A DNA stretch of 64,000 nt. Origin: a virus (Duplodnaviria; Caudoviricetes). Each line of letters begins with the position of its first letter. Position 1 is the first letter of the stretch. A program made the position numbers and the translations under genes. A model generated the notes under the pieces. That model was not told the origin of the DNA and made no database searches. It worked only from the letters and a program-made list of their open reading frames with translations. Of the stretch, positions 4,386 through 64,000 are shown in pieces. The stretch covers positions 15,333-79,332 of the IMG/VR virus record IMGVR_UViG_3300043432_000238; one strand, written 5' to 3'.

Positions 4386-4564
4386 ATCGATGCACCGCTC
4401 ATAGGACCGGCACAGAAGGCGGAACTGACCTGGGATATCGAGAACCACGCGCACGCCCCGCAAAAGGGGCCGGCTATCAAGCGGGAGCAAAATAGCCGGC
4501 CAGTCTAGGGAGGAAACGCCCGAGGAGGGCTGCGCGCCAGGACAACGAGCTAACCCGCCACGCA

Positions 4565-6716: not shown

Positions 6717-6717
6717 G

Positions 6718-7212: not shown

Positions 7213-7218
7213 AATGGA

Positions 7219-8073
7219 GTGCCGAGTGTGAGTGAGTTGCAGACCTATGACGCGCCGCTATCGGGTCAAATCGTTGATCGCGATGCAATCGAGATCGGTG
7301 AGTTCTACGAAGCGGCGCGAAACTCGATTATCGATTCCGTGCGTCATGCGGCCGAAGCCGGACGCCGCCTAGCTGAGAAGAAGGCATCACTGAAGCACGG
7401 CGAGTGGTTGCCTTGGCTTGAAGCGAATGCGGAGGTGCTGGGGTTTGGCTCCGATCGGACAGCACAACGTCTCATCGGTTTGGCAAATCCGACGTTAACG
7501 TCGGATTTGGACATTATAAGTTGCAAAGAAGCTGTAAATATCAGCCGTAAGTTGTGGGGCAACGAAAAGGGCGCGGGGCAGCTCATCCAGCAATCCCTCA
7601 GCAACGAGCACTATACGCCCGTCGAGTACATCAACGCAGCGCGCCGTGTCCTTGGTGGCATCGATCTCGATCCTGCCACTTGCCTTCCCGCCAATGAAAC
7701 GGTTCTCGCGGAAAAGATTTTCACACAAGCCGATGACGGCTTGAGACAGCCGTGGAATGGTCGCGTTTGGCTGAATCCACCCTATGGCCGGTTTGTCGGC
7801 GAGTTCATCTCTAAGCTGATGGCGGAGATCGCAGCACAACGGGTGGCCGCAGCCATTACACTCGTGAATGCTCATTGCACGGATACAAGCTGGTTCCAGC
7901 CCCTTTGGAATGGCACGCTTTGCTTCACCCATCACCGCATCAATTTCTACGGCGACGACAGTCGGAGCGGTTCTACGCACGGCAGTGTGTTCGCTTATTT
8001 TGGCGATCAGATCGACCTATTCGCTGACGAGTTTCGTCAGTTCGGCGCAGTTGTAAGAGAACTCCGGCCATGA
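7219..8073 (+). CDS. DUF3102-like domain fused to a phage N6-adenine DNA methyltransferase
   Basis: EAGRRLAEKKASLKHGEWLPWL...RTAQRL N-terminus; NEHYTP...IDLDPA...VWLNPPYG catalytic motif. Confidence 0.88.
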   Translation: MPSVSELQTYDAPLSGQIVDRDAIEIGEFYEAARNSIIDSVRHAAEAGRRLAEKKASLKHGEWLPWLEANAEVLGFGSDRTAQRLIGLANPTLTSDLDIISCKEAVNISRKLWGNEKGAGQLIQQSLSNEHYTPVEYINAARRVLGGIDLDPATCLPANETVLAEKIFTQADDGLRQPWNGRVWLNPPYGRFVGEFISKLMAEIAAQRVAAAITLVNAHCTDTSWFQPLWNGTLCFTHHRINFYGDDSRSGSTHGSVFAYFGDQIDLFADEFRQFGAVVRELRP

Positions 8074-46123: not shown

Positions 46124-49100
46124 TGGACGAGATGCCTGTTTCGACTCTGGCTGGCGGCGCAGAGATGGATCTGCGCGCCCAGCTCGATGCGCTGGACGAC
46201 ACGCCGCAGACGACGATCATCCCGAAATCGCGTCCGGAGGGCAGCGCCGACGTCGAGGTCGATCCGCTCATGCAGCAGATCACGGACAGCGGCAAGCTGG
46301 ACCAGCTCACGCGCTCGGTCGTCAACGACCGCGACATGGCGCCGATCGACGCCACCGCCCGCAGCCAGGCCGAAGCCCATCAGGGCATGCTGGATGAGTG
46401 GGAGAAGGAGGTCGCCCACCAACAGGCGCTGCTCGCCGACCCCTCCATCTCCGGCCAGCCGGTCGACATCCTGAAGGCCAATCTCGCCTTTGCCGAGAAG
46501 CGCCGCGACGAGATCCGCGCTGAGCGCGACAAGGCGCGGGCCCTGCAGACCGAGAACCTCTCCGATTTCTGGCAGCCCTTTGCACAAGCGTTTGCGCCGC
46601 AGCCGACCGAGGCCAAAGCGCTGCAGCAATATGCGGAGAGCGCGGGTGCCGACGGGCTGGCGGCAGGTGCTGGAGCCTTTGCCGATTATCTCGGCAGCGA
46701 GCTGGCGGCCTCTGGCTGGGAACCCTTGTCGCTGTCGAAGGTCAGCGGCATTAGCGATTTCGGCCGCTATCTGGAGCAGACTGCGGGCTCGGCGGCCGGC
46801 ACGCTGGCGCATTTCGGCACCATTGGCGCGTTGACGGGCGGCACCGGCGTCGTCGCCGACCTGATGGCGCAGGGCCATGGCCAGATGCGCCAGGCGCTGG
46901 AGCAGGCCGGCGTCACCGACAAGGCATCGCTCGCCAAGGGCACCTATACCTACGGCACGCTGGTCGGCGGGCTGCAGGCTGTGGTGCCCTGGGCGGTGAT
47001 GCGCGGACTGACCGCGCCGGCACAAGCCGCTTTCGTCGGCACCCTTGCGCAGATCTCCGCACGCGTCGCCACCGGCAGCTTGAAGATGGGCCTCGCGCAG
47101 ACGCTCGCCATGTCGCTGGCGGGCGTTGCCGAGACCTATGGCATCACCGACGTCACCGGCAAGCCGATCGACTGGGGCGCGGTCGGCCAGAAGGTGTTGG
47201 AAGACATCCCGCAGAACGCCATCACCGGCACGCTGTTCGGGGCGTTCGGTGAGGCCGGCAAGATCGCGGGAGGCGGCTACAAGTTGCGATCGAGCGACGA
47301 GCAGGTGCAAGCCTTCATGGAATTGGCCGGCATCAAGCCGGGCACGCCTGCCGCCGACGAATTCATGGCGGCAAAGGCGAAGTTCGATGCCGAGCGCGCT
47401 GCTGCCGAGCAGGCGGCCCGACCGCGTCTTCCCGCGCCGCAGATGGGTGAGACGACTGCCGGCGAAGCTGCCACTGGGAAACCCTCACCTGCCCCTGACG
47501 CATTGCGCCAGGAACTCGGCGAGCTGGCCACCGAGCGCACACCCGAAGCCGATGCACGCCGCGCCGAGATCGAACGGCAACTGGCAGCAGCAGAGCAAAA
47601 GCCTGAAGCGAAGGCACCGGAAGAAGACGCTCTGCGTTCGGAATTGGCGCGTCAGGACGAAGCCGTCGGCACGCCGGTCCTGACGCAGGCTTACGACCGT
47701 TTGAGCGATGCGCAGCGCCGCGAGGCCGCCGACCGCGTCGGCAAGGGCGAGGACGCCGCCGACGTGGTCGAAAACATCGCCATCCGCAGCGTGCAGGTCG
47801 AGCAATATCTGGAGGACAATGATCTCTCATTGTCCGATGAAGCCAAGGGCGGCGTCACTCGCTGGATGGCGAACGGCCGGCCGATCGAGGAGGCAGCGTC
47901 ACTCTATGCCGAGGAAGAATTCCTCCGGGAACTCACCAGCCGACAAGGGCTCGCCGCGGGCGCGCCTGCCGGGGAAACCGCAGCCGCTGGCGGCGGAGCC
48001 ACAGCCGAACCCAACGCCGGAGCTGGCGAGCCAGCCGCCGGCTCCGCCAGCGGAGCAACCGGCACTGCCGTCGCCGGAGCCGAGCCCACAGCAGGAGAGC
48101 CAGCCGCAGGCGCAGCCGGAGCCATCACCCGCCCCGCAGCCGCCGAGCCCACCGCAGCAGCCCCAGGAACCAGCCTCCCAGCCGGCGGAGCCCCAGCAGC
48201 CGCAGGGCTGGAGCCCGGATCAGCACGCCCAGGCGGCGAGCCAGTTGCAGGCATGGGCACGGGAGGAGCCGGCCCCGAAGGAACGCCAGCGGCTGGAAGA
48301 GCTGGCGGCGTTGCACCGGCATCTGGCGGGGAGGGTGCAGCCGGAGCCGGCTCAGGCATAACCTTCAAGACCGCGAAGGGCTCGTCCTACGTCGTTCATG
48401 ACGATGGCACGACATCGCGGGACAAAAAATACCGGCCCGAGCATGGCGAGAAGGAGCAAGGACCGCAGCCGCGTTCTGAACGCACGTTCTATGTGACGGC
48501 AGAAGACGCGCAAAAGCTAGGAGAGTTCCAGACCCAAGGCACCAAGAAAGCCGTGGTCGTCGACGAAAAGACCGGTCACGCCGCGGTCAAATATTTGGAG
48601 GGCAAGGCTGCCGGAAAAATCGAAAAGCGGACCGTCGTCAAGTTCCAGACCGAGCCCGCGGTCGGGCTGACCCCAGTCGAGATCTGGAAGGACGGCACGC
48701 GCGTTCACTTTGGCAACGCGATCACCGAGGTGACACAGCCGCGCGAGATCGTTACGCCTGACGGTTCCATGTCCGTCAAAACGACACCGGAAATCGTCGA
48801 TCTCGCCAGCCTAAAGACCGCGAGCGGCAACCTCCAACCGCGTGACCGGTCTCGCGCCGAAAGCCAAATTCAGATCCGCAACATCGCGGCCAATCTGGAT
48901 CCGCAGCAATTGATGCCGGCGCGCGTCTCCGATAGCGGTGCTCCCGTCGTGGCGCAGGACGGCACGGTGATTTCCGGCAATGGCCGTGTCGCGGCTCTGG
49001 CAGAGGTTTACCGCGATCCCGCGCTGAAGGAGAAAGCTGACGCCTATCGTGCGGCGCTCGGACCGGCGGCCGAAGGCATGCAGGAGCCGGTCATGGTTTC

Positions 49101-52100
49101 GCGCCTGCCGGCGATGGAGCAGGCCGAGCTCGAGAAATTCGCCGATCTTTCCAATCGCTCGCGCATCGGCGCGATGTCGGCGACCGAACGCGCAATGCGT
49201 GACGCCCGCGCTGCCGGTCCCGAAATCATGGGCCTTTATACCGGCGGCGCATTCACATCGCCGGCGAACCGCGACTTCTTCCGGACTTTTCTGGCCAAGG
49301 CGGTCGCGCAGAACGAGCGTGGCGCAATCTCGCGCGACGGCATGTTGACCAAGGAGGGCGAGGACCGCCTCTCCGCCGCCGTCCTGGCGGCCGCTTATGG
49401 CGACCAGGATCTGCTGGCTCGGATGCTGGAGAGCACCGACGACAACATCCGCAACGTTACCGGCGCGATGCGTGATGCCGCCGGCGCTTTCATCCGGCTC
49501 AAGGAGACCATCCGTAGCGGGCAGGCATCAGAAAAATTCGACATTACGCCGCAAATCACAGAGACTGCCAAACGCATCGCCGATTTGCGCAGCCGCGACA
49601 TCAAGCCGGCCGCGTTCCTGGCGCAGCAGGATGCCTTCACGCAGATCGATCCCATCGTCGAGGCGTTGCTGCGCGCATTTTACAATGACGATCTTTCGCG
49701 GGCGCTCTCGCGCGAAAAACTCACCGAGGTCTTGATCCGCTATGCCGAAGAAGCTGAAAAGCACACCGAAAATGGCCTTATCCCAGACGAAACCACGCCC
49801 GAAGACGTCATCCGCGTCGTCCGCGACCGCGCCCTCGCAGGCGAACGCCTCGCCGCCAGCCAGACCGACATCTTCACCAGCCGCCCAAGCGCTGCTGGCG
49901 GGACTGCTGCAGGGGCTGGGACAGAGGGACAGCGACCAAGCAATGCAGAGCGCGGGCGAGAACCTGGCGGCACAGCTCAGCCAACCCAAGGCCAGCCAGG
50001 GTTAACCCAATCCCAACTCCTAAAATCCGCTACCTGGCACGAGCCGCTGCAATCGCTGAAGCTCGCCGAGGAAGATGCCGCAAAGCTCGCGTCGAAGCTC
50101 ACCGGTGAAGCGCGCGCGCTCGTCGGGCAGATCGGCGCGAATGCCGTTCAGATCCGCGACCGCGTCCGCGCGCAGGATTTCGCCGGCGCCGAGCAGCTAC
50201 TGCGCCAGACGCTGGATGCTGCCGCACGCGCTGCGGCCCTGGACGATCGCGCTAACCTTCCGACGCAATGGGTGCGGCAGGCGGCAAACGCCTTGCCGGG
50301 AACCGAAGCAGGCAAGGCCGCCGTCGCGCAGAATTTCACGCACGAGCAAAACATCTTTCGCGCGGCTTGGAGCGATTCTGTCCGATCCCTTGATGATTTT
50401 ATCAATCGCGGCTTTGAAGGCGAAGCTCCAGCATCTATCCGTCGTGCCGCCGAATTTACTGGCGATGCGAGGGGCGCTTTCGATCGGCTGATTGGCGATT
50501 ACAAAGACATCGTTGAAGCCTATACGGCAGGTAATCGCGGATCTGCCGTGACGGCTCTCGGCAAAGCGATCGAAGATGCTGCGTTGCTTGATCGGCTGGA
50601 CGACAGCCCCAAAGCACGACTTTTTACGCAGTACGCGCGTTTCATGGCGCGCAAACATCTCGGCGAAACAAAAGCGCCCGCCCCCACCATCACCCCCGAG
50701 CAGCGCGATCATTTCCGTGAAGTCCTGAGAGGCTCGACACCCCGCAAGCAATGGATGTCGGAGCTTGGCGTCGATCCTGCCCAGATGGATGCGCTGATCC
50801 GCGAAGGTGAAGCGCAAGGACTGCTGCGCGTCGACCGTAACGGCATTGTCCGCCGGACGGCAAAGGCGAGGACGGACGAGCCGACGCCAGAAGAGCAGAT
50901 GCTGGCGATGCGTGCTTATCATGGCTCTCCGCATGCCTTCGACAAGTTCGACCTATCGAAAATCGGAACCGGCGAAGGAGCGCAGGTTTTCGGACACGGG
51001 CTGTATTTTGCCGAGAACGAGGCAACCGCAAAAAGTTATCAATTGACGCTCGGAATGCGGGCGGCAGACCCGCAACTGCTGGCAAAAGAGACAATGCCGG
51101 ACCTGCTGAAGAAGCAGCCGACATTGGGCGGTATGCTCTACCAAGCTGCTATCAACGGGCGTAAATCGGCGCTCGATGAAGCACTTGCGATCCAGATGCA
51201 ATCCATTGATTTGCGCGACCCCGGTGATATGCGCAAGGTCGGGCCGGTTCGCAAGCGCTTAGCCGAAGCAATTCAAGCACTTCGAGATCAGAGCAAGGGG
51301 AATCTCTATGAAGTCTCCCTCGATGTCGAGCCCCATCAGCTCCTTGATTGGGATAAGCCGCTGAGTGAGCAGAGTCCTGAGGTTCGCCAAGCATTGCTTG
51401 ATAATTTCGTGCAGGTGCGTTTGCAAACTGGCGACATTGCGAGTGGTATTTATACGCGAGCGGAAGCTGAACAGATTGCCGCCAAACCTGGGCGCGCCGT
51501 TGTCCCGCTTTCTGATGATGTGCGAGGCGACACCATTGTCCAATACGCTGATGATCCGGAATTTGTCAGCGCCCTTCGCGAAGCCGGCATCGCCGGCATC
51601 CGCTATCTAGACCAAGGCTCTCGCACTCTTGACGTGCAGATTCTCAACCCGCACGAAACGACGCACGGCAACTGGGTCGTCAAGCAAATCCCCAACGGAG
51701 AGGTCTATTATCGCGGTTCTGACGAAGCCGCTGCTCGCGCTGCCTATGAGGCGGCGCCCAAGCCGACGCACAACATCGTCATCTTCGACGACAGCCTTAT
51801 CAAGATCACCCACAAGAACGGCGTGCCTGTTACAGCAAAAGAACGCGCCGACGCGCTCGATCAGATGCACTCTGACCAAGCCGCAGCGGATGAGCAGCGC
51901 TTCGCCCTGCGCGGTTTCTACTCCCCCGCGATCCAGGCCGCAGAATCCATCGCCCAGGCGAAAGGCACCGGCGAGCAATTCTGGAAGCAGATCACCAAAG
52001 TCCCCGGCGTCAAGAAGGACGAGCTGGACTGGATGGGTCTTGAAGAGTTCCTGAAGGATAAGACCTCGATCACCAAGGCCGATGTGCTCGACTATATGCG

Positions 52101-55100
52101 GGCGCATCAGGCGGTGCTGGAAGAGAAGGTGCTCGGCGGCACGCCAGAAGGACAAGTGAGCCGATGGGAAATCTCTCTCGGGACACTGCGTAATCTCCTG
52201 CGCATGGACCAAGACGAGCTACCTGATGGCGCTTACACGGATATCGAACAATTTGCCTCCGGCAAAGAGCAGGCGTTCGTCGTCTATGATCCACATGGCC
52301 CGGGCGGTGGATGGTTCGTTTTGGATGATTCAGGCAATCCGAGGGGCGCATCAAGTCGTGAGCAGGCGCTTCATATGGCCACCGGCTATGTGACGAGTGA
52401 GTCAGAAACTGCACCGAAATTTGGCGAGTATAAAGTCCCCGGCGGCGAGAACTACCGCGAGTTGCTGCTCCGGCTGCCGGAGCTGGCCGACAGAAAACTG
52501 ACGCCTGAGCAGCAAAACCGTATCGCGCAAATCGGCGCTGATATGCGTGATCTGCGTGCAAGAATGAGCGAGGGAGATGCGCCGCAGCGGGAAGCTCTGC
52601 GCAAAAAAAACCGCGCGCTCAGTGCCGAAGAGAATGCGATCCAGGATACGGTTCGCCCCTATCTGTCCAAGCACTTCCAGGATCAGGAACTCGTCCATCT
52701 CCGCGTCGATGACCGCTACATCCCGGCCCCCGGGCCATCGGCGGAGCGGGCCGCCGCAATTCGAGAGCAGCTTCTCGATCTGAATGCCGCCGATCCTGAA
52801 GCCAAAGCGCTGCGCGAAGAACTCAATCCGAAGCGGAAGATCCTCTTCATCAATGAGGTGCAAAGCGATCTGCATCAGGAAGGAAGACGGGCGGGGTATC
52901 AGCAAGAAGATTTGTCCGGCAGGATCGCAGAGGCAAGGGCGGCCGTGCTCAAAGCGCTCGAAGATGAGCGGTCTGCATCTGTCGCGTATGAACGAGATGA
53001 GTCTCGCTTCCAGCAACTGCGCGACGCAGCAATACGCGTATCCGATGCCCGGAATGAACTTTCGGCATTAGAAGAAGCAGAGCGCGTTCCGAATGCTCCT
53101 TTCAAAGGCGACCTCTGGCTCGAACTCGCTCTAAAACGTGCCCTGCAATATGCCGCAGAGAACGGCTATGACGCCATCTCTTGGGCGAGATCGGATCAGA
53201 TCGCCAAGGCTGTCGGCGCCGAACCTGAAAAACTCGCACTCCAATACGATCAGAAGATCGGCAAATTCCTTGATAAATATACCAGGAAATGGGGAGGGAA
53301 GGTAGAGAGCGAGAAGGGGATCGTCAAGCCAGAACACCTGCAGGCTGACGTCGATGTCGGTGATGGCTATATATCGGAACATTTCTACAGGCCGATGCGC
53401 GAATTGCTGCCGCGCCCGTTCAACTCCGATCACTACGCCCGTCTTGCCTTCGACGAAACAGCGCTTGGCGAAATCCCTCGATCTTTCGATGTGCTTGGCG
53501 CAATCCGCGAAGCGGGAGATCCGGCAAATGTCGAGAAGGCAAAAAAGCTTTTAGAGGCATACCAAAAGCATCTGACCCCGCGTCCCGAGCCCAACCCCAT
53601 CCTCCGCATCACCCCGGAGATGCGCGACGCCATCGAAAGAGGGCAGCCGCTCTTTGCCCTGACCGATCAGCAGAGCCGCGTCCACGTCATGCGCCAGCTT
53701 TCAGCGGGGCGTGCCGCCGAGATCGAGCCTCGGCTAGTGAGTGCGGTCAATGACGTTCTCGCTCCGATCGCGCAAGGATTGCCTGAAGGCGTGCGGATCG
53801 GCGCCGTGTCGCGTGTCGAGCCGACCAGTGACCCAGAGCAATTCACGGCACATTTCGCTGCGCCTGATGGCTCAGCCTTTACGCTTCCCGTCACCGGGAT
53901 GCATATCTTCGACGGTCGCGCCGCCTACAACCCCCGGACCGACACCATCATTTCGCTGCGCTTCGGCGCCCTCCCTGGCGAGACGGCGAGCAGTCATTTT
54001 AGCCGCGCCCTCCGCGGTGAGATTTATCATGAGACCGTCCATGCCGTCTGGCGCCGACTTCCGTCCAGTCTTCGCACCGCGCTTATCGACCATGCGAACA
54101 GCCTCCACATCATGAATTTGCCGTTCCGACGATATCTCGGTTTGATCGGCGATCCAAGTGCACATAACGCACCGATCACATCGCTGCGGTTCAACTACGA
54201 GGAAGCCTATAGCGAGCGCAAGGATGTGCCGGGCCTGATTGATCAGGAAGCTGCAGCTCACATGATGGAGTTGTATGTCCATGGCGTGCTGAGTGATGAA
54301 CAGGTCGCACCGGTCAAAGGTATCCTTGACGCGCTCATCAATGACGCCGGCGGTTTCGTCAAGCAAGCCCGTAGGAAAGGCGGCGGAGCGGCGCTCCTGG
54401 CGGCCCGCGGTACCGAAACCGACGCAACACAGCCGCGCACGCCGACCGAAGTCAAAGTCTATCACGGTACCGGCGCGGAGATGGAACAGTTCGACCCGGA
54501 GTTTTTCGGACAACGCACCCAATTCCGCGAACCCGGCGAGAAGCCGAACCGCACGACGGAGAAAGCGTTCTTTTTCAGCGCCGAGCCATCGCTGGCCAAT
54601 GCCTATGCCGAAAACCGCACGAATGTTCCCTATGAGCTGCGGGCGGAAGCGATCAAGAGCGGCTTCGCCGAGGGCGACGATCCGACAGCGTTCTCATCGC
54701 TCAGCCGCTACAACCCGAAGATCGTCGAAGAAAAGATGAACCGCCTTGAGGAACAATATTTCCAGAGCGGCGCACGCGTCTTTCCCGCTTTCATTGAGAC
54801 GAAGAATTTCAAATCCGTCGACATGAAAGGCTATCGCTGGAACAGCGACGAGGGCACCAAGATCCGCAGCCAGATCAACAAGGCGAGGAAGGAAGGTTTC
54901 TCCGGCCTGATCATCGACGGTATGCAGGACGCGGGCGGATCGACCGCGCGGCAATATGCGGTCTGGGACAAGGGCACCGTCCGCAGCGCGCTGAGCGACA
55001 ATATGCTTTTCGCCATGCGCTCCCAATCCGCCGGCATCAACGAGATCTTCGCGGGCATCCGCGCCGATCTTGGCTTGAAGGAACCGGAGGGCCCCAAGAA

Positions 55101-57966
55101 AGGCGTAAAGCCTTCACTTCGCGCGCAGATCGTCGCCATCGCCTCCGAAGGCGGCCGTCAGCTCGTGGACATCTATGGCGCAAAACTGATGCCGGCGATC
55201 GCGCCCCACCGCGCTGCGATTGAGGACATGGCGCTGCCTTTGTCGACCGACCGCATCGGTGAGGGCTTCTCGCGCTTCTTCCGCGAGTTCGTGCTGAAAC
55301 CGGGCGATCTGCGCCAGCGCCAGCGCGCTCTGTATGATGACTTCTCCGATTTCCTCGATGCCGAGGCCCCGCAATTGCTGGAAGCCATCGACGAGATGCA
55401 CCGGATCGGCCGAGAGCGCATCGCCGAGATCAAGGCACGGGCGACATCTGCCGGTTCAGGTGGCGCATCGCCGCCGCCGAGCGCGCCGCCCCATGTCGGC
55501 ACGGGAGCGCCAGAGCCGGATAGACGCCGTTTGCCGCTGGTCTTCCGCCAGTTCGTCGACGGCTGGAAGCGCAATTTCCAGCCCGAGCTGATCTCGACGA
55601 GGGCGCTCGAAGCCGACCCGCTGTTTGCGAAATACAAGTCGGCGCCGGCGAAAGACAAGGACATGATCGTCGCCCGCGGCGAGGAACTCTACGACCATTG
55701 GAACACCATCCCGGAGCGCCAGCGCCTCGACTTCATCCGCGATGTCGAGCTGGGTGCCGCCCAGCCGACGCCCGAGCTTGCCGAGATCGCCTGGCGTTAC
55801 CGCCAGATGCTCGACCAGGCGCAGCGGGACGAGGCCGTCTACGGCTCAAAGGCAGCTTATGTCGAGGACTATTTCCCCCACATCTGGGAGGACGCCGCCA
55901 AGGCGCGCGAAGTTTTCAAGGCGCTGTCCGCCGCGCAGAATCTCGGGCCGAAATGGTTCCAGAAAGAGCGCGTCTTCGACCTGATCGAGGAAGGCATCAA
56001 AGCCGGCCTGAAACTGAAGACCACCAACCCGGAAGAGCTCGTCTCGCTCCGCCTGATGGCCGGCGCCGACATGCGGATGCGCATGGAGTTACTCCAGGAA
56101 CTCGAAAAGATGGGTCTTGCCCGCAGGGTCAAGGAGCTGAATGTCAGGCTCGACATCGGCGCCAACGGCGGACCGCAACTCGACGAAGGCTCGGGTTTCG
56201 CTCGGGAAGGCTGGGCCGCGATCAACGCCCCGAACATGGAGCAATGGCTGATCTCGCCGGATATCCAGCCGATCTGGGAGAATGCGGTGGAGAGCAAGGG
56301 GCTCTGGGCCGATGAAGGTATTGCCGGCTCGGCCTTCAAAAAGTGGATGGCGTTCAAGAACATCTGGGTGCCGATCAAGCTCTCGATCTCGGCGTTCCAC
56401 CCGCTGCATGTCATGCACATCAATTTCAACAACGACATGGCGCGGGGCCTGACGCAGATCATTCGCGGCGGCGATTTTGTCGGCGGGATGCGCAGCATGG
56501 CCGGCGCCTTCGATATGCGCCAGGGCGTTGGTTATGACGCGCGGCAAGCCTGGCTGAAGCCGCGCGAGGAGCAGACGCCGTTCGAGCGCGCCATCGTCGA
56601 CCTGATGACCGATGGCGGCTTCGTGCCGCAGCTTTCCGAGCAGCTCCGCATTGCCGGCCGGCGCAGCTTCCAGAAAGCCATTGATGAGAGCCGGTGGCTG
56701 GCGGCGATGCCGCTCGGCCTTCGGCGTGGACTGGAACTTCTCCAGGGTCGAATTTTCGAGCGCTGGATTCCCGGCATCAAAGCCGCCGCCTACATTAAGG
56801 AGGCGCAGGCTCTGTTCGAGCGCCGGCCGGATCTGCTCGACGACAATATCCAGCGCCGCGTCGCGCTCCGCGCCATCGCCAAATCCGTCGACAACCGTTT
56901 CGGCGAGATGTTCTACGGCAGCCTGTTCTGGAACCGGACCATCAAGGACGCTGGTATCGGCTCTTTCCTGTCGCTCGGTTGGAACCTCGGTTTCTTCCGC
57001 GAGTTCGGCGGTGCCGTCATCGACACCGGTTTGAGGTTCAAGCCGAATTCAAAACCACGCCAGACTATCTTGGATGCCACCAACAAGATGGAGTTCGCTC
57101 TTCTTTACTTCCTCACCGGGGCGGCGCTTGCCGGAGCGATGACCTATGCCTTCACCGGCGAGATGCCGAAGGACGATGATTTCACCTTCCCGCGCATCGG
57201 CGGCCTCAATCCCGACGGCTCGCCGCGCCGCATCACCACGATGTTCTACAACCGCGAATATCCGATGCTGATGAAGCACATCCAGGAACAGGGCGGCGGT
57301 CTTGGCGGCTCGATCTCGGGTCTGTTCGAGATGTACTACAACAAGACCATGATCCAGCCGTTCAGGGAAATCGCGCAGAACAAGGATTATTTCGGCTATC
57401 CTTTGTGGGACGAGAGCGCGCCGCTGTATAAGAAAGCCTTCCAGTTCGCCAAGAAGGAATTCGCCAACCAGATGATCCCGATGACCGGATCGGGCGCTGC
57501 CCGCGCCGCGACGCTGGGCAATTCATGGACCGATAAGGGCGTATTTCTGTCCTTCCTCGGCTTCGGCCCGGCACCGTCCTATGTCGAGAAGACCGCGATC
57601 GAGAACCACATCCAGCATCTCTACGGCAAATATGTCGCGCCCTCGGCGAAACCCTATGCAGCGGAGGAGCGTGATCGGATTAAGCGCGAAGCAAAGGACG
57701 AGCTGCGCCTTGCCAATCAGCGCGGCGATGTGGATGCGGCCAACGCCGCGAGAAAGAAGGCCATAGACGCTGGGGCCAAGGGCAAATATCTGACGGCGTC
57801 GAAGCTGAACCAGAACAGTACCTATTTCCTCTTCAGCAGACTGCCGGAGGACATCCAGCGGCAAGTGCTGGAAGAGGCGTCGCCCGCCGAGGTGAACGCC
57901 TATCGTAGTTACGCCAAGGCTAAGGTGCAAACGGCGTTCCCGGCGCGGCCGGTCACCGCGCATTAA
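46123..57966 (+). CDS. 3,947-aa polyvalent ejected virion protein (ParB-like, two ART-like domains, HExxH metallopeptidase)
   Basis: LQPRDRSR...SDSGAPVV...SGNGR; YHGSPHAFDKFDLSKIGTGEGAQVFGHGLYF; IYHETVH; VYHGT...AFFFS...VFPAFI. Confidence 0.88.
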   Translation: MDEMPVSTLAGGAEMDLRAQLDALDDTPQTTIIPKSRPEGSADVEVDPLMQQITDSGKLDQLTRSVVNDRDMAPIDATARSQAEAHQGMLDEWEKEVAHQQALLADPSISGQPVDILKANLAFAEKRRDEIRAERDKARALQTENLSDFWQPFAQAFAPQPTEAKALQQYAESAGADGLAAGAGAFADYLGSELAASGWEPLSLSKVSGISDFGRYLEQTAGSAAGTLAHFGTIGALTGGTGVVADLMAQGHGQMRQALEQAGVTDKASLAKGTYTYGTLVGGLQAVVPWAVMRGLTAPAQAAFVGTLAQISARVATGSLKMGLAQTLAMSLAGVAETYGITDVTGKPIDWGAVGQKVLEDIPQNAITGTLFGAFGEAGKIAGGGYKLRSSDEQVQAFMELAGIKPGTPAADEFMAAKAKFDAERAAAEQAARPRLPAPQMGETTAGEAATGKPSPAPDALRQELGELATERTPEADARRAEIERQLAAAEQKPEAKAPEEDALRSELARQDEAVGTPVLTQAYDRLSDAQRREAADRVGKGEDAADVVENIAIRSVQVEQYLEDNDLSLSDEAKGGVTRWMANGRPIEEAASLYAEEEFLRELTSRQGLAAGAPAGETAAAGGGATAEPNAGAGEPAAGSASGATGTAVAGAEPTAGEPAAGAAGAITRPAAAEPTAAAPGTSLPAGGAPAAAGLEPGSARPGGEPVAGMGTGGAGPEGTPAAGRAGGVAPASGGEGAAGAGSGITFKTAKGSSYVVHDDGTTSRDKKYRPEHGEKEQGPQPRSERTFYVTAEDAQKLGEFQTQGTKKAVVVDEKTGHAAVKYLEGKAAGKIEKRTVVKFQTEPAVGLTPVEIWKDGTRVHFGNAITEVTQPREIVTPDGSMSVKTTPEIVDLASLKTASGNLQPRDRSRAESQIQIRNIAANLDPQQLMPARVSDSGAPVVAQDGTVISGNGRVAALAEVYRDPALKEKADAYRAALGPAAEGMQEPVMVSRLPAMEQAELEKFADLSNRSRIGAMSATERAMRDARAAGPEIMGLYTGGAFTSPANRDFFRTFLAKAVAQNERGAISRDGMLTKEGEDRLSAAVLAAAYGDQDLLARMLESTDDNIRNVTGAMRDAAGAFIRLKETIRSGQASEKFDITPQITETAKRIADLRSRDIKPAAFLAQQDAFTQIDPIVEALLRAFYNDDLSRALSREKLTEVLIRYAEEAEKHTENGLIPDETTPEDVIRVVRDRALAGERLAASQTDIFTSRPSAAGGTAAGAGTEGQRPSNAERGREPGGTAQPTQGQPGLTQSQLLKSATWHEPLQSLKLAEEDAAKLASKLTGEARALVGQIGANAVQIRDRVRAQDFAGAEQLLRQTLDAAARAAALDDRANLPTQWVRQAANALPGTEAGKAAVAQNFTHEQNIFRAAWSDSVRSLDDFINRGFEGEAPASIRRAAEFTGDARGAFDRLIGDYKDIVEAYTAGNRGSAVTALGKAIEDAALLDRLDDSPKARLFTQYARFMARKHLGETKAPAPTITPEQRDHFREVLRGSTPRKQWMSELGVDPAQMDALIREGEAQGLLRVDRNGIVRRTAKARTDEPTPEEQMLAMRAYHGSPHAFDKFDLSKIGTGEGAQVFGHGLYFAENEATAKSYQLTLGMRAADPQLLAKETMPDLLKKQPTLGGMLYQAAINGRKSALDEALAIQMQSIDLRDPGDMRKVGPVRKRLAEAIQALRDQSKGNLYEVSLDVEPHQLLDWDKPLSEQSPEVRQALLDNFVQVRLQTGDIASGIYTRAEAEQIAAKPGRAVVPLSDDVRGDTIVQYADDPEFVSALREAGIAGIRYLDQGSRTLDVQILNPHETTHGNWVVKQIPNGEVYYRGSDEAAARAAYEAAPKPTHNIVIFDDSLIKITHKNGVPVTAKERADALDQMHSDQAAADEQRFALRGFYSPAIQAAESIAQAKGTGEQFWKQITKVPGVKKDELDWMGLEEFLKDKTSITKADVLDYMRAHQAVLEEKVLGGTPEGQVSRWEISLGTLRNLLRMDQDELPDGAYTDIEQFASGKEQAFVVYDPHGPGGGWFVLDDSGNPRGASSREQALHMATGYVTSESETAPKFGEYKVPGGENYRELLLRLPELADRKLTPEQQNRIAQIGADMRDLRARMSEGDAPQREALRKKNRALSAEENAIQDTVRPYLSKHFQDQELVHLRVDDRYIPAPGPSAERAAAIREQLLDLNAADPEAKALREELNPKRKILFINEVQSDLHQEGRRAGYQQEDLSGRIAEARAAVLKALEDERSASVAYERDESRFQQLRDAAIRVSDARNELSALEEAERVPNAPFKGDLWLELALKRALQYAAENGYDAISWARSDQIAKAVGAEPEKLALQYDQKIGKFLDKYTRKWGGKVESEKGIVKPEHLQADVDVGDGYISEHFYRPMRELLPRPFNSDHYARLAFDETALGEIPRSFDVLGAIREAGDPANVEKAKKLLEAYQKHLTPRPEPNPILRITPEMRDAIERGQPLFALTDQQSRVHVMRQLSAGRAAEIEPRLVSAVNDVLAPIAQGLPEGVRIGAVSRVEPTSDPEQFTAHFAAPDGSAFTLPVTGMHIFDGRAAYNPRTDTIISLRFGALPGETASSHFSRALRGEIYHETVHAVWRRLPSSLRTALIDHANSLHIMNLPFRRYLGLIGDPSAHNAPITSLRFNYEEAYSERKDVPGLIDQEAAAHMMELYVHGVLSDEQVAPVKGILDALINDAGGFVKQARRKGGGAALLAARGTETDATQPRTPTEVKVYHGTGAEMEQFDPEFFGQRTQFREPGEKPNRTTEKAFFFSAEPSLANAYAENRTNVPYELRAEAIKSGFAEGDDPTAFSSLSRYNPKIVEEKMNRLEEQYFQSGARVFPAFIETKNFKSVDMKGYRWNSDEGTKIRSQINKARKEGFSGLIIDGMQDAGGSTARQYAVWDKGTVRSALSDNMLFAMRSQSAGINEIFAGIRADLGLKEPEGPKKGVKPSLRAQIVAIASEGGRQLVDIYGAKLMPAIAPHRAAIEDMALPLSTDRIGEGFSRFFREFVLKPGDLRQRQRALYDDFSDFLDAEAPQLLEAIDEMHRIGRERIAEIKARATSAGSGGASPPPSAPPHVGTGAPEPDRRRLPLVFRQFVDGWKRNFQPELISTRALEADPLFAKYKSAPAKDKDMIVARGEELYDHWNTIPERQRLDFIRDVELGAAQPTPELAEIAWRYRQMLDQAQRDEAVYGSKAAYVEDYFPHIWEDAAKAREVFKALSAAQNLGPKWFQKERVFDLIEEGIKAGLKLKTTNPEELVSLRLMAGADMRMRMELLQELEKMGLARRVKELNVRLDIGANGGPQLDEGSGFAREGWAAINAPNMEQWLISPDIQPIWENAVESKGLWADEGIAGSAFKKWMAFKNIWVPIKLSISAFHPLHVMHINFNNDMARGLTQIIRGGDFVGGMRSMAGAFDMRQGVGYDARQAWLKPREEQTPFERAIVDLMTDGGFVPQLSEQLRIAGRRSFQKAIDESRWLAAMPLGLRRGLELLQGRIFERWIPGIKAAAYIKEAQALFERRPDLLDDNIQRRVALRAIAKSVDNRFGEMFYGSLFWNRTIKDAGIGSFLSLGWNLGFFREFGGAVIDTGLRFKPNSKPRQTILDATNKMEFALLYFLTGAALAGAMTYAFTGEMPKDDDFTFPRIGGLNPDGSPRRITTMFYNREYPMLMKHIQEQGGGLGGSISGLFEMYYNKTMIQPFREIAQNKDYFGYPLWDESAPLYKKAFQFAKKEFANQMIPMTGSGAARAATLGNSWTDKGVFLSFLGFGPAPSYVEKTAIENHIQHLYGKYVAPSAKPYAAEERDRIKREAKDELRLANQRGDVDAANAARKKAIDAGAKGKYLTASKLNQNSTYFLFSRLPEDIQRQVLEEASPAEVNAYRSYAKAKVQTAFPARPVTAH

Positions 57967-59380: not shown

Positions 59381-59454
59381 CGGCATATCGAGGCTAGAAG
59401 GTGTTTGAGCCACCTCCCAGCCTCTAACCACAGCAACCTTCTGAGGAGGCTACC

Positions 59455-59706
59455 GTGACTGTCATCGACCTACCATCTCGCCTGACCACTGCCAAGCCTG
59501 AGCGTCCGAGCATCGCCACTCCGATTCTAAACAAGGAGCGGATCTGCAAGTCGCTCGAGGAGATCGACCAGAACATTGATCTGCTGTTCTGCGTCAAGGG
59601 CACGATCGTCGGATCGCAGGATGTACCGGACGAAGTCATTGCGGCGCTGAACATGATCCACGGCCGGCTGCGCCGTCTGACGGACAACTTGTTCGCGATC
59701 CTCTGA
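59455..59706 (+). CDS. Hypothetical protein divergent from the RHH gene
   Basis: GAGGAGG RBS, GTG start. Confidence 0.7.
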   Translation: MTVIDLPSRLTTAKPERPSIATPILNKERICKSLEEIDQNIDLLFCVKGTIVGSQDVPDEVIAALNMIHGRLRRLTDNLFAIL

Positions 59707-59802: not shown

Positions 59803-59841
59803 TTGACGCGGCAGCGGCGAATACATAGAATACGTGTATTC
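59803..59841 (+). promoter_or_regulatory. TA operon promoter/operator
   Basis: TTGACG (59803) N17 TAGAAT (59826); repeated GAATAC and inverted GTATTC over the -10. Confidence 0.7.
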
Positions 59842-59856
59842 ACTGGAGTTTCCGAC

Positions 59857-60078
59857 ATGGTTACCTCGATCCGCCTGGATGCCGAGACCGATCAGCGCCT
59901 TACGGCACTTGCCGCTCAGACCGGGCGCAGCAAGGCGTATTATCTGCGCGAACTAATCCAGCGAGGCATGGACGATCTGGAAGACTACTATCTCGCGACG
60001 CAGACTCTGGAGCGCGTCCGGAAAGGTGAAGAGCGCATCTTGAGCAGCGAGGAGTTCTGGTGTGCCGTGGAGGATTGA
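59857..60078 (+). CDS. RHH antitoxin (RelB/StbD-like)
   Basis: SIRLDAETDQRLTALAAQTGRSKAYYLRELI...LEDYYLA. Confidence 0.9.
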   Translation: MVTSIRLDAETDQRLTALAAQTGRSKAYYLRELIQRGMDDLEDYYLATQTLERVRKGEERILSSEEFWCAVED

Positions 60079-60331
60079 GTACGCCGCCACGGTCGAGAAG
60101 TCGATGCGGAAGCTCGATAGCCAGACCCGTAAGCGCCTTTGCGATTTTCTCGAAACACGAATCGCTAATCTGGATGATCCGCGGCAACAAGGCAGTGCGT
60201 TGACCGGAACGCTGGGCGGGTTATGGAGATACCGGGTCGGGGATCATCGGATCATCTGTGAGATCCAGGACTTCCGCATCGTGATCCTCGTGCTTAGGAT
60301 CGGCCATCGGCGCGAGATCTACCGGGATTGA
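60062..60331 (+). CDS. relE: RelE/StbE-family toxin
   Basis: GSALTG...LWRYRVGDHRIICEIQD...LVLRIGHRREIY. Confidence 0.92.
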   Translation: MPWRIEYAATVEKSMRKLDSQTRKRLCDFLETRIANLDDPRQQGSALTGTLGGLWRYRVGDHRIICEIQDFRIVILVLRIGHRREIYRD

Positions 60332-60406: not shown

Positions 60407-60976
60407 ATGCAATTCGAATCCGTCCAGCGCGGCTACGCGAGCCTATGGTCGCGCGCCGAGATCCGCCCGGAACGCGCCTCCGCCGCGACCGCAATCGCCA
60501 AGAAGCTCGCCGGCAACCAGACGCGCTATGCCAGCGTCTCGGCGAGCGTCGGCGCGCCCTGGTGGTGGGTGGCGATCATCCACCAGATGGAAGCGGATGC
60601 GAATTTCACCAAGCACCTGCACAATGGCGACCCGCTCAACGCGCGCACGACGCATGTGCCGCGCGGACGCCCGCCAAAACCTTTGAACCCGCCCTTCACC
60701 TGGGAGCAGTCCGCCGCCGACGCGCTGACCATGGAAGGCATTGCCGACGTCAAGAGCTGGGGGATTGCCCGCGCGCTCTACCAGTTCGAGAAATACAACG
60801 GCTTCGCCTACTTCAACCATGCCATCAACTCGCCTTACCTCTGGAGCTTCACCACGCTCTACGACAGGGGCAAATACGTCGCCGACGGCAAGTTCGACCC
60901 GGACGCCGTCAGCCAGCAATGCGGCGCTGCGGCCATCCTGAAGGCGATGGTCAGCGCAGGGATCGTCAGCCTCTAG
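60407..60976 (+). CDS. Endolysin (lysozyme-like)
   Basis: VAIIHQMEA...HLHNGDPL.ART.HVP.GRP...EKYNG...SPYLWS...GKYVADG...Q.GAAAIL. Confidence 0.85.
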   Translation: MQFESVQRGYASLWSRAEIRPERASAATAIAKKLAGNQTRYASVSASVGAPWWWVAIIHQMEADANFTKHLHNGDPLNARTTHVPRGRPPKPLNPPFTWEQSAADALTMEGIADVKSWGIARALYQFEKYNGFAYFNHAINSPYLWSFTTLYDRGKYVADGKFDPDAVSQQCGAAAILKAMVSAGIVSL

Positions 60977-61010
60977 CCGAGCATGGATCAATCAACCAAA
61001 GGAGATCGAT

Positions 61011-61226
61011 ATGGACGAATCCAAACCCTGGTACGCCTCGCAAACCGTCTGGGCCAGCATCATTCAGGTCGGCGTCGGGCTTGGCGTCAGCCTGCATCTG
61101 TTCGACAGCGCGGCCGGCGCCGCGATCGCCACCGAAGGCCCCGGCTTGCTGGTCGGCATCGCCACCACCGTGCTCGGCGTCTGGTCGTTCTATGGCCGGG
61201 TGAAAGCCTCCAAGACGATCGGCTGA
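61011..61226 (+). CDS. Holin
   Basis: KPWYASQTVW, two TM helices, basic C-terminus, directly after the endolysin. Confidence 0.8.
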   Translation: MDESKPWYASQTVWASIIQVGVGLGVSLHLFDSAAGAAIATEGPGLLVGIATTVLGVWSFYGRVKASKTIG

Positions 61227-61231
61227 GCCCC

Positions 61232-61561
61232 GTGGTCGCGGTCCACTTCCATCACCATTCCGACCCAGTCATCGAGCGCAGACTGGACCGGATCGAAGCG
61301 GCGCTCGAAACCATCATTGGAGATCTAAAACGAATGGCACTCAACTTCGACAGCCTCGAAACCGCGATGAGCGAAAATTCCTCCGCGATCGATAGCGCGA
61401 TCAAGGCGTTTCAGGATCTAGCGCAAGCGTTCAAGGATGAAGCCGCCAACCAGTCCAAGGTGTTGCAGCTCGCCGACCAGTTGCATCAGCGCGCACAGTC
61501 GCTGGCAGGTGCGATCGTGACCAACACGCCGGCCGATCCGGGCGCAGCTCCGGCCGCATGA
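61232..61561 (+). CDS. Hypothetical lysis-module protein (start uncertain)
   Basis: Helical ORF coupled to the next gene. Confidence 0.6.
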   Translation: MVAVHFHHHSDPVIERRLDRIEAALETIIGDLKRMALNFDSLETAMSENSSAIDSAIKAFQDLAQAFKDEAANQSKVLQLADQLHQRAQSLAGAIVTNTPADPGAAPAA

Positions 61562-61770
61562 GCTGGCTGCAGGCCATCCTCGCCGCGCTCCAGGCCATCA
61601 ACGCATTGGTGGCCTGGCTGCGCGAGCGGCAACTGATCACGGCCGGCGAAGCCGAAGCCGTCGCGGAAGGACTGAAGCTGACCAATGACCGTATCGCTGC
61701 GGCCCTGGCCGCTCGTCGGCGCGCTCGCGATAGCGATCCCGACCCTCACGATCCCTATCTCCGCGACTGA
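61558..61770 (+). CDS. Putative i-spanin (Rz-like)
   Basis: N-terminal TM, coiled coil, C-terminal DPYLRD. Confidence 0.65.
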   Translation: MSWLQAILAALQAINALVAWLRERQLITAGEAEAVAEGLKLTNDRIAAALAARRRARDSDPDPHDPYLRD

Positions 61771-61981
61771 CGCGGGAGATCGCCGGTTCTGCGCCGCGGA
61801 ATTCTATCTCGGTGGAACGGGCGGCTCGGTGCTGTGCGAGCAGCCGGCGCAAACCGCCGTCGCCGATACGGCCTGCCAAGCGTTCGAGCCGATCCGCTAC
61901 AGCCGCAAGGATACACCAGACACCATCAAAGCCATACGGGCTCACAATGCGGCCTGGGATGCGCTGTGCAAAGGCAAATGA
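61685..61981 (+). CDS. Putative o-spanin (Rz1-like), overlapping
   Basis: C..FEPIRYS..DT..T...IRAHNAAWDALC; no clear lipobox seen. Confidence 0.55.
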   Translation: MTVSLRPWPLVGALAIAIPTLTIPISATDAGDRRFCAAEFYLGGTGGSVLCEQPAQTAVADTACQAFEPIRYSRKDTPDTIKAIRAHNAAWDALCKGK

Positions 61982-61988
61982 GAGATGC

Positions 61989-62288
61989 ATGACAGATACC
62001 CCAGCTCGGGACGAGGCGAACCACGGCGCAAGGCTAACGGCTCTGGAGACTGGTTTGCGCCATTTCCAGGACATCTGCGACCTGCGGAACCAGCAGGTCA
62101 GGGACACGTTTGTGATATTGCAGCAGCAGAACGAGCGCCAGGACCGCGAACGGCAGGAAATGGAGAAGCGGCTGCAGGATCAGCTCGAGGAGCTCAACGC
62201 CTTATTGTGGAGCGGCATGAAATGGCTGGGCAGCTTTCTCGGCGTCACCTTATGCACGATTGTCTTGAAAGCATTGCGTCTCGTCTGA
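61989..62288 (+). CDS. Coiled-coil protein with C-terminal TM (XhlA-like)
   Basis: ARLTALE coiled coil then WLGSFLGVTLCTIVLKAL. Confidence 0.7.
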   Translation: MTDTPARDEANHGARLTALETGLRHFQDICDLRNQQVRDTFVILQQQNERQDRERQEMEKRLQDQLEELNALLWSGMKWLGSFLGVTLCTIVLKALRLV

Positions 62289-62305
62289 GGCAAAGCCGGT
62301 GGGTG

Positions 62306-62374
62306 ATGAGATGGCTGACCCTCGGGGCGGTCGCTTTTCTTGTGGTGTCAGCGATATTGGAATGGTGGAAATAA
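62306..62374 (+). CDS. 22-aa membrane peptide
   Basis: MRWLTLGAVAFLVVSAILEWWK. Confidence 0.4.
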   Translation: MRWLTLGAVAFLVVSAILEWWK

Positions 62375-62386
62375 GCCTGGATCTCG

Positions 62387-64000
62387 CGTCCCTCCACGCG
62401 CGCTCGGGCGACGAAAGTGACAAACTTTAAGGTGCAAGCGCAAGCAAGAAATTTTTTTAGAAATTCAAAAGCCGTCCCCCCATACGCGTTCGGGGCGACC
62501 CTGACAATCCATATTCGGGCGCAATTGACTTTGCATCCCTCCACACGCGCTCGGGGCGACCACAAATATCTGCGTTCTAATATAGGCTCCTAATCGTCCC
62601 TCCACACGCGCTCGGAGCGACCTCCGTGTAAGGCAATATACGGACAAACATGCATCGTCCCCCCGTACGCGTTTGGGCGACCAGTCCGCCGACGATTTAA
62701 TCAAGCCGCACGGAACGTCCCCCCCGTACGCGTTTGGGCGATCTTAGACGCGTCACGCGCAAGAGAACCTTCTTAACGTCCCCCTCTACGCGCTCGGGAC
62801 GACCCAGGAACATATGTCGCATCTCCATTGATGCACGCGTCCCCCTCTACGCGCTCGGGACGACCTTCCGGGTAGCGACGCGATCTCTGTTTCCAGAGCG
62901 TCCCCCTCTACGCGCTCGGGACGACCCGTCACCACCCGAAACTTGACGTGGGCGGCGCACGTCCCCCTCTACGCGCTCGGGACGACCTTGTAGCTGAAAG
63001 GAGGAAAGCTCAATTTCAGACGTCCCCCTCTACGCGCTCGGGACGACCTGCCTGCGTCGCGGCCTCGCTTGTTGTTTGCCACGTCCCCCTCTACGCGCTC
63101 GGGACGACCTCCAATTTTGCAATTATTTGTGGGAGTATAAGACGTCCCCCTCTACGCGCTCGGGACGACCGCCGAATGATGGCGCCTGCCTCTCCTGCAT
63201 CTACGTCCCCCTCTACGCGCTCGGGACGACCCGCTGCGGTAGTCGGCCCGGAACGATGACGCGCCGTCCCCCTCTACGCGCTCGGGACGACCCAACCTTG
63301 GCATCCTCACCGAGATCGCTCCAGCCGTCCCCCTCTACGCGCTCGGGACGACCGCGATCCCCACCAGCGTGACTGACACGTCGTGCCGTCCCCCTCTACG
63401 CGCTCGGGACGACCTCGGAAGGCTTCCAGTTCGCGCGCGCCGTCAATCGTCCCCCTCTACGCGCTCGGGACGACCTGGCTTTGGGGTTCCAATGCCCTTC
63501 TTGGATTTCGTCCCCCTCTACGCGCTCGGGACGACCCTTGAGGCAGGCGACACTGAGCGATGGAACGAGCGTCCCCCTCTACGCGCTCGGGACGACCGCG
63601 TTGCCGATCATGACTTCGATCCTAAGACCACGTCCCCCTCTACGCGCTCGGGACGACCTTGCCCAGGCCCTCGAAGACCGAGGCATTCCGGCGTCCCCCT
63701 CTACGCGCTCGGGACGACCGTACGTCTTACCAACAACTTGCAAACCACCTAGCGTCCCCCTCTACGCGCTCGGGACGACCTCGACCTGGGCTTCCAGGCT
63801 TTCGAGGGTGTAACGTCCCCCTCTACGCGCTCGGGACGACCGCAGACATTCGCCAGATATCGCATCAACGGAGACGTCCCCCTCTACGCGCTCGGGACGA
63901 CCTCGTAGTCGTTGTCGGGGTCGCGGCACATCGTCCGTCCCCCTCTACGCGCTCGGGACGACCGTTGGCGCCAAGATCATGAAAGTGCCGCCAGGGCGTC
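62387..64000. CRISPR. CRISPR array: 28-bp repeat CGTCCCCCTCTACGCGCTCGGGACGACC, 33-bp spacers, continuing past the window edge
   Basis: 20 identical repeats at 61-bp periodicity (62777 to 63936), 6 degenerate repeats (62387, 62473, 62534, 62595, 62656, 62716), a partial repeat at 63997, and unique spacers. No cas genes in the window. Confidence 0.97.

Follow-up and report, generated by a model that had tools for sequence, protein, structure and literature searches.

A phage-borne CRISPR array with a TnpB-like Cas12 effector of predicted inactive RuvC site, a putative tracrRNA and type I-E ancestry

Related systems and the locus under study

Type V-M CRISPR systems are built on Cas12m (formerly V-U1), a compact effector that derives from TnpB, has a RuvC site that is non-canonical or inactive, and binds DNA without cutting it (PMC11013384; PMC12669027). 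Cas12m is carried by mobile elements, in one case by a phage next to a type I-E-like repeat (10.64898/2026.09.14.751636). TldR, encoded by prophages, is a homologue of TnpB whose RuvC site is inactivated and which binds DNA under RNA guidance (10.1101/2023.11.30.569447). The Cas12r-CRISPR system of Thermus Lalka phages has a small phage-encoded type V effector derived from TnpB and an array of type I-E-like repeat length, with 32-33-nt spacers and a protospacer-adjacent motif (PAM) overlapping that of type I-E; its phage lacks adaptation genes, and the system was proposed to act in conflict between mobile elements (10.64898/2026.04.20.719267). Likenesses to each of these were found in the system described here, which is encoded by a phage (Duplodnaviria; Caudoviricetes) represented by the IMG/VR virus record IMGVR_UViG_3300043432_000238. 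The window analyzed is a stretch of 64,000 nucleotides, bases 15333-79332 of the 79,332-bp record, and holds a long CRISPR array at its right end (62387-64000). The remainder of the system lies outside the window at C1:1-3308 (locus L001), where C1 denotes contig coordinates.

The array is read here, with a probability of about 75%, as the guide store of a phage-encoded, nuclease-inactive, TnpB-derived type V system with an adaptation module and array of type I-E origin. On the minus strand, through the circular junction of the contig, the effector comes first and is followed by a cas1 remnant, a cas2 fossil, a structured RNA, a 46-nt leader segment and the array. By analogy, the system appears functionally closest to Cas12m and Cas12c, and it would be built like a tracrRNA-dependent (trans-activating CRISPR RNA) miniature type V system with a class 1 adaptation module. 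A first-pass annotation of the window, made from its letters, had proposed, as one of two alternatives, a phage-borne array used against competing elements, possibly with an unusual effector. The array and the effector are borne out; the use against competing elements is not, as no protospacer was found in the searches described below. The leader and cas genes that it expected to the right of the array were reached through the circular junction, and the look beyond the array that it called for brought a TnpB-like Cas12, a cas2e fossil and a closed contig.

The literature holds a large background of type V diversity. A 2023 survey counted about 50 independent type V origins, recorded the capture of adaptation genes at least 12 times and noted several V-U variants in which the sites are altered (PMC10691335), and the 2025 classification predicts the inactive subtypes V-O and V-P (PMC12669027). 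In comparisons with single chains, the effector gave a weak sequence match to a Cas12p chain (E 0.053) with a structural Z of 15.6, and a Z of 10.9 to Cas12o1. No description was found in the literature that combines a dead RuvC site, cas1e-cas2e, a type I-E-derived array, a co-evolved tracrRNA and a phage-only distribution; the family may be one of the V-U, V-O or V-P variants.

The effector and its family

The effector is a TnpB-like Cas12 protein of 685 residues, encoded at C1:1251-3308 on the minus strand and characterized by profile search, structure modelling and alignment. It matches nearly the whole of the PADLOC profile Cas12_x2 (E 1.4e-192), which is filed under CAS-V-F, and is therefore already catalogued as a PADLOC profile. 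The NCBIfam profile guided_TnpB was matched just over its cutoff, and the Cas12f profiles gave only E 1e-16 or weaker. By sequence, no close relative was found among solved structures. An AlphaFold2 model was built from 93 homologues with a mean predicted local distance difference test (pLDDT) score of 92.2 and a predicted template-modelling (pTM) score of 0.86. The top structural match of this model is ISDra2 TnpB (Z 21.1), with a root-mean-square deviation of 2.4 Å over 338 of 341 residues. Lower Z scores were obtained for Cas12m (15.7), Cas12p, Cas12m2 (15.2), Cas12f (about 14) and Cas12o1. The model thus depicts a full TnpB core to which insertions add about 300 residues.

All three RuvC carboxylates of the D-E-D triad are replaced in the alignment. 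The canonical TnpB motif GIDxG of RuvC-I reads G(I/V)K(I/V)A, with K420 in place of the aspartate. RuvC-II, canonically (I/V)xVE(N/D)L, reads VAVQ(R/K)M with Q551 in place of the glutamate, and RuvC-III, canonically (A/R)DxNAA, reads RNRNAA with N662 in place of the aspartate. The CxxC...CxxC zinc ribbon is retained. Across the family RuvC-I has the lysine and RuvC-III has a residue that is not acidic, and a few distant members retain E or D at RuvC-II. From these replacements the effector is predicted to be nuclease-inactive and to group with the inactivated type V variants. The ratio of nonsynonymous to synonymous substitution rates (dN/dS) is 0.10-0.11 against the two closest relatives, and the same value was obtained between those relatives; the effector gene is therefore not decaying.

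Relatives of the effector were collected in two ways. A word-indexed search gave 93, almost all of them metagenomic, and an exhaustive HMMER search over 1.84 billion representatives gave 33 clusters at E <= 1e-30, beyond which the scores drop abruptly to those of generic TnpB. Eight related loci were recovered, each on a viral or phage-like metagenomic contig and each with an effector-cas1e-cas2e operon, the same RNA and arrays of 28-nt repeats and 33-nt spacers. IMG/VR holds seven loci of the family, two of which lie on genomes with direct terminal repeats. Wherever a locus reaches far enough, an array stands downstream of the TnpB-derived, RuvC-fold effector; its repeats are homologous to, and diverged from, the repeat of this phage, and the arrays of the relatives have no spacers in common. 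Neither a relative of the effector nor the exact repeat was found in 185,579 species genomes. The system is phage-restricted.

Membership in the Cas12m group was rejected. No phmmer match to the Cas12m or Cas12m2 chains was obtained at E <= 1, and the structural scores for these proteins are below that for TnpB. The Cas12m triads are D-E-D, H-D-D or N-D-D, whereas the residues here are K-Q-N. Cas12m works without a tracrRNA and itself processes a longer repeat, the CRISPR RNA (crRNA) of PmCas12m retaining about 33 nt of repeat, whereas an anti-repeat and a scaffold RNA are predicted here. V-M loci are also without cas1 and cas2 (PMC10691335), which the relatives of this system have.

The guide RNAs of Cas12f and TnpB have a long scaffold with the guide on its 3' side, and Cas12f uses two repeat:anti-repeat duplexes; the layout predicted here is alike. 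The present system differs from TnpB and Cas12f in its extra residues, its dead RuvC site, the lack of a transposase or transposon ends, and its possession of a genuine CRISPR array together with an adaptation module of type I-E. Cas12r is distinguished by an active RuvC site (D238A abolishes interference), by the lack of a tracrRNA, by a crRNA with the repeat part on its 3' side, and by its place on another TnpB branch, in thermophiles (10.64898/2026.04.20.719267).

Further features were observed at and near the effector. Residues of about 165-245 form a DUF2695-like Cys/His insert (PF10905, E 1.7e-10) that is confined to the sub-branch to which this effector belongs and is absent from shorter members. 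A 184-residue protein without a family match is encoded just upstream of the effector (L001:3887-4441, minus strand) and occupies the same position in five related loci at 44-80% identity; this could reflect phage synteny, or the protein could work together with the dead effector.

Array, scaffold RNA and adaptation genes

The repeat reads CGTCCCCCTCTACGCGCTCGGGACGACC on the plus strand. Twenty identical 28-nt copies are present at window positions 62777-63963 (minus strand), separated by unique 33-nt spacers to give a 61-bp period, and the window ends four bases into a further repeat. Tandem Repeats Finder detects the array only in part because the spacers are unique. Twelve perfect repeats lie off-window at C1:6-704 (minus strand), of which the first two coincide with the copies at 63875-63963. 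The junction is formed by a 126-bp terminal overlap, window 63875-64000, that is identical to C1:6-131 and takes in two repeats with two spacers before it runs into a third repeat. Since these two unique spacers are common to both contig ends, one array runs across a circular or terminally redundant junction. The whole array then has 35 contiguous repeats, 30 perfect and 5 degenerate, with 34 different spacers, and one isolated copy. The closed unit is 79,201 bp (about 79.2 kb), and the CheckV completeness of the record is 99%.

The first-pass annotation had also considered that a prophage had integrated at a host array's trailer, the array then being chromosomal and of type I-E. This reading is suggested by the array abutting phage genes and by a contig that terminates within the array. 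A contig with both ends in one array, closing on itself, does not agree with this. No host genes are present on the contig, and neither cas3 nor Cascade genes were found by the array in Pfam, PADLOC or NCBIfam searches, nor were any found in the relatives; the canonical host type I-E operon that such an origin would leave beyond the array is not on the contig. Among the relatives, the same system is carried by phage genomes that have direct terminal repeats. This origin is regarded as extremely improbable; the observation stands, and it is of greater interest than a common host array lying next door would be.

The record is classed as linear in IMG/VR, presumably due to the 5-nt offset of the terminal overlap. 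The first five contig bases (C1:1-5, CCTAG) equal the end of the spacer at window 63748-63752, three units upstream of the start of the overlap. This match looks like the trace of a co-existing array variant without two spacers.

The trailer end of the array is degenerate. The isolated and most degenerate copy (62387-62414, minus strand), with substitutions and a 1-nt deletion relative to the consensus, begins 12 bp past the end of an open reading frame (ORF) at 62374. It is followed by a 58-nt AT-rich stretch without repeats (62415-62472), so that the spacing to the contiguous array is 86 nt rather than 61. Five degenerate repeats with four old spacers (62473-62743, minus strand) start at 62473, 62534, 62595, 62656 and 62716. 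Three full-length 28-nt copies among them were tested (62473, 62534 and 62595), and each is still paired with the anti-repeat at 19 of 22 positions. The position, period, repeat length and direction of decay given in the first-pass annotation (28 nt, 61 bp, first copy 12 bp past the ORF) all agree with these results.

As had been described, the window repeat can form a CGTCCC/GGGACG stem whose loop is 13 nt long and which leaves 3 nt on its far side. It is perfect in this phage only, with 3-5 of the 6 pairs formed in the same register in seven relatives, and it had been read on the strand that is predicted not to be transcribed. The central positions of the repeat, which would form a short-loop hairpin of the Cas6e type, are 3/6 paired, and among the relatives only L003 retains most of these pairs. 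The functional pairing of the repeat appears to be with a tracrRNA-like RNA and not within the repeat itself.

Approximately 300 nt between cas2 and the array can be aligned over eight loci and contain many invariant blocks. An ungapped pairing scan of each locus located the anti-repeat. On the effector strand, the segment most complementary to the repeat lies at the same place in every case, at a distance of 46-75 nt upstream of the first repeat copy, and starts with GGGGAAYCC. In this phage it corresponds to C1:751-778 (minus strand), next to a leader-proximal segment conserved in the alignment across loci (C1:705-750, minus strand). It forms part of a predicted tracrRNA-like scaffold of about 200 nt (approximately C1:751-957, minus strand), identified by alignment and covariation. 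RNAalifold independently gave several scaffold hairpins together with two contacts to the repeat. The first contact is a 20-pair helix of the 3' anti-repeat with repeat nucleotides 1-22, and the second is a 4-bp helix of a 5' segment of the scaffold with repeat nucleotides 24-27. At the level of sequence this arrangement, an array-adjacent RNA with an anti-repeat complementary to the repeat, is that of a tracrRNA-dependent type V system.

Covariation was analyzed across the same loci. The paired alignment cells amount to 90.3%, compared with 80.2 ± 1.0 in shuffles (0 of 500 as high), and 34 pairs are changed on both sides, compared with 22.7 ± 2.8. The anti-repeat helix (helix 9) is 94.4% paired with 9 of its 20 pairs compensatory, and the 4-bp helix (helix 2) is 100% paired with 4 of 4 pairs covarying. 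The scaffold RNA, a putative tracrRNA, would thus have co-evolved with a borrowed repeat. When the structure is read in the effector sense 87 G·U pairs are formed, compared with 19 in the antisense, and the anti-repeat helix falls to 74.4% paired in the antisense. Because the G·U pairs favour the effector sense, the RNAs are predicted to be transcribed from the window minus strand; the array would then be transcribed in the same direction as the effector. No Rfam family was matched in the array, tracr or effector region. The motif TTGAC(A/G) occurs within the last cas2 codons with an A/T-rich hexamer 17 nt on in 8 of 8 loci. It is plausible that these elements are an embedded promoter, which is a possible reason for the survival of the cas2 3' end.

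The type I-E resemblance noted in the first-pass annotation reflects real ancestry. A cas2e fossil in a 78-codon frame is present at C1:974-1207 on the minus strand and matches PF09707 at profile positions 22-86 with 37.2 bits (cutoff 24.7). An N-terminal remnant of cas1e with the deletion breakpoint lies at approximately C1:1198-1254 (minus strand), where about the first 19 cas1 codons follow right after the effector stop. In all eight related loci cas1e is intact (288-302 bits, cutoff 215.6) in an operon behind the effector, and cas2e is likewise intact (72-82 bits, NCBIfam equivalog cutoff 33). Two of these loci have effectors that are 85-86% identical to this one. Since cas1e-cas2e is intact in all related loci, the deletion of the adaptation module is specific to this phage lineage.

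Together with the 28-nt repeats, the 33-nt spacers and the cas2-leader-array order, the fossil and the relatives' genes are those of type I-E. The system differs from type I-E in lacking cas3, Cascade and cas6e and in the loss of the repeat hairpin, and in having a structured RNA of about 200 nt with an anti-repeat at the position of the leader. Membership in type I-E was rejected on the absence of Cascade and the loss of the hairpin.

The geometry of the array and the cas2e fossil could alternatively belong to an orphan type I-E array that loads its spacers onto the Cascade of the host, the TnpB-like neighbour being unrelated; virus-borne arrays that exploit host machinery are known (reviewed in PMC11656645). 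The repeat, however, is without the short-loop hairpin of the Cas6e type and covaries with the anti-repeat of the neighbouring RNA. In every locus the effector, cas1e-cas2e, the scaffold RNA and the array occur as a linked set, the repeat was found in none of the 185,579 species genomes, and no match to Cas1e, Cas6e or Cas7e was obtained anywhere on the contig. An orphan array is thus considered very unlikely.

The deletion was followed in the source freshwater metagenome. Two run assemblies cross the deletion junction with zero differences, and a minor contig (depth 5 compared with 51) diverges exactly at C1:1198 into the Cas1e continuation GLVWLDHGRL. Adaptation-competent and adaptation-deleted forms therefore co-occur in the source sample, and the deleted form is dominant. 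Effector fragments identical to this one were found in a landfill metagenome from a different study. With cas1-cas2 lost, the array of this phage can no longer grow.

This loss raises the alternative of a decaying relic, in which the array was frozen and the locus is without function. The deletion of cas1, the truncation of cas2, the degenerate trailer repeats and the lack of a spacer match in anything searched are all in keeping with it. Against these stand an intact effector ORF, whose dN/dS equals that between two relatives that retain cas1-cas2, the 30 identical repeats, and a scaffold RNA in which both pairings with its own repeat are intact. The deleted form also dominates the sample, and many working CRISPR systems of phages and plasmids are without adaptation genes (PMC10691335; 10.64898/2026.04.20.719267). 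A relic is judged unlikely.

Spacer targets, proposed role and origin

Targets of the spacers were sought in several collections. Window positions 62777-64000 gave no blastn match to GenBank phages at E <= 1, and two matches of about 45 nt to PLSDB plasmids (82%, E 0.1-0.3) were taken as noise. When 33 of the 34 spacers and 77 from the relatives were compared with this contig and the fetched loci, only chance matches of 14-20 nt were obtained. Exact 24-mers of the three newest spacers had no match in IMG/VR, and the array gave only short or repeat-to-repeat matches to the complete records of five related phages. Since no protospacer was found in these searches, no PAM can be derived, and the spacer matching to phage and plasmid databases that had been suggested for this purpose was without result.

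The effector could instead be a TldR-like RNA-guided regulator of host or phage genes with no part in defence. Nuclease-dead TnpB homologues of prophages do control host genes (10.1101/2023.11.30.569447), the locus adjoins a cI-like HTH_3 gene that is conserved near the effector in six loci, and the searches of GenBank phages and PLSDB gave no phage or plasmid protospacers. TldRs, however, use a single fixed guide RNA and have neither an array nor adaptation genes, whereas the present locus has 35 repeats and 34 different spacers, on which membership in the TldR group was rejected. The relatives retain a working-looking adaptation module, their arrays have no common spacers, and no spacer matches the genome of its own phage. 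A purely regulatory function therefore seems improbable.

For the phage-encoded type V system that is preferred here, the following mechanism is proposed. The scaffold RNA would act as a tracrRNA, and host RNase III would cut the 20-bp tracr:repeat duplex to give repeat-spacer crRNAs. The complex of effector, tracrRNA and crRNA would bind matching PAM-flanked DNA and block transcription or replication without cleavage. Binding without cleavage by Cas12m and Cas12c is a precedent for such silencing (PMC11013384; PMC12669027). In a lysogen, the result would be a heritable and programmable exclusion of competing phages or plasmids. Relatives with intact cas1e-cas2e would still acquire spacers, while the array of this phage would be frozen. 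A type I-E module suits a type V effector because in both the PAM lies 5' of the protospacer, and both rely on the upstream, spacer-adjacent repeat. A similar argument for the compatibility of type I-E and type V was made for the Thermus phages by the authors of the Cas12r study (10.64898/2026.04.20.719267).

Several points weigh against this interpretation. Some TnpB and Cas12 lineages with rearranged catalytic sites stay active (PMC10691335), and the loss of the RuvC site is here read from sequence. The loss of cas1-cas2 could be a first step toward decay. The scaffold RNA and the crRNAs are predicted from DNA, and a sigma-70 consensus scan of the minus strand gave no promoter. The paired cells fall to 48% or less with the partners slid, a control that is inflated because the counts were made on the very eight sequences from which the structure had been derived. 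No protospacer is found in the GenBank phages, the PLSDB plasmids, the phage's own genome or the records of its relatives, and the role in exclusion is one that we infer.

A more tentative proposal, given somewhat less than an even chance, concerns the origin of the system. A TnpB lineage may have become a CRISPR effector by capturing a type I-E module with its array, and not by duplication of its omega RNA; it would then have fitted a tracrRNA and dropped cutting. The outcome would be a distinct, undescribed subtype that provides temperate phages with natural, adaptive CRISPR interference (CRISPRi) for silencing rivals or reprogramming hosts. Altae-Tran et al. favour arrays that arose from omega-RNA duplication and state that insertion beside an existing array "cannot be ruled out" (PMC10691335).

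The remaining genes of the contig are those of a phage. The hallmark genes are TerL, which is less than 40% identical to that of any cultured phage, a portal/adaptor, a major head protein and a tail protein (418 bits). An S24 repressor of the cI/LexA type, YqaJ, a RecT-like protein, Dam and a GcrA-like regulator are also encoded, a set that suggests a temperate lifestyle; no integrase was found among the larger genes scanned. The last plus-strand phage ORFs (61812-62374) mark the boundary of the array and are outside the CRISPR system. A coiled-coil protein with a C-terminal hydrophobic segment is encoded at 61812-62288, and a short hydrophobic peptide ends at 62374. The ORFs at 60407-62374 have no PHROG or Pfam match, which leaves the earlier label of a lysis module for this region a tentative one.

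Other observations were made along the window. A ParD-like ribbon-helix-helix antitoxin (91 residues) and a ParE toxin (89 residues, 61 bits) are encoded at 59803-60331, about 2 kb before the array; they are its nearest recognisable genes and are of the type that stabilises plasmids and phage-plasmids. Beside them lies a match to FinP at the Rfam gathering score (59384-59461, minus strand, 51.5 bits). A second such match, at 4453-4537 (minus strand, 44.5 bits), is to suhB/mmgR, an alphaproteobacterial small-RNA family that may hint at the class of the host. At 6547-8073 the GcrA-like/helix-turn-helix regulator adjoins the Dam-type adenine methyltransferase, which recalls alphaproteobacterial cell-cycle control modules on phages. 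A single ORF of 3,947 residues (46123-57966) is probably a giant tail or injection protein, and is preceded by an 810-residue protein with an SLT lytic transglycosylase domain (43691-46123).

The practical lesson of this locus is that a contig ending within an array deserves a closure check at its opposite end. The array, the leader position, cas1 and cas2 are unmistakably of type I-E, and the effector is nearer to TnpB than to any solved Cas12. With a type I-E array and module, an effector near TnpB and an apparently co-evolved scaffold in one locus, the capture route for the origin of Cas12 becomes directly testable. The family would be a natural nuclease-free, tracrRNA-guided DNA binder of 510-740 residues that has its own spacer-acquisition genes and is found only in phages. 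It may serve as a compact CRISPRi scaffold, and its biological relevance would lie in phage-phage conflict within lysogens.

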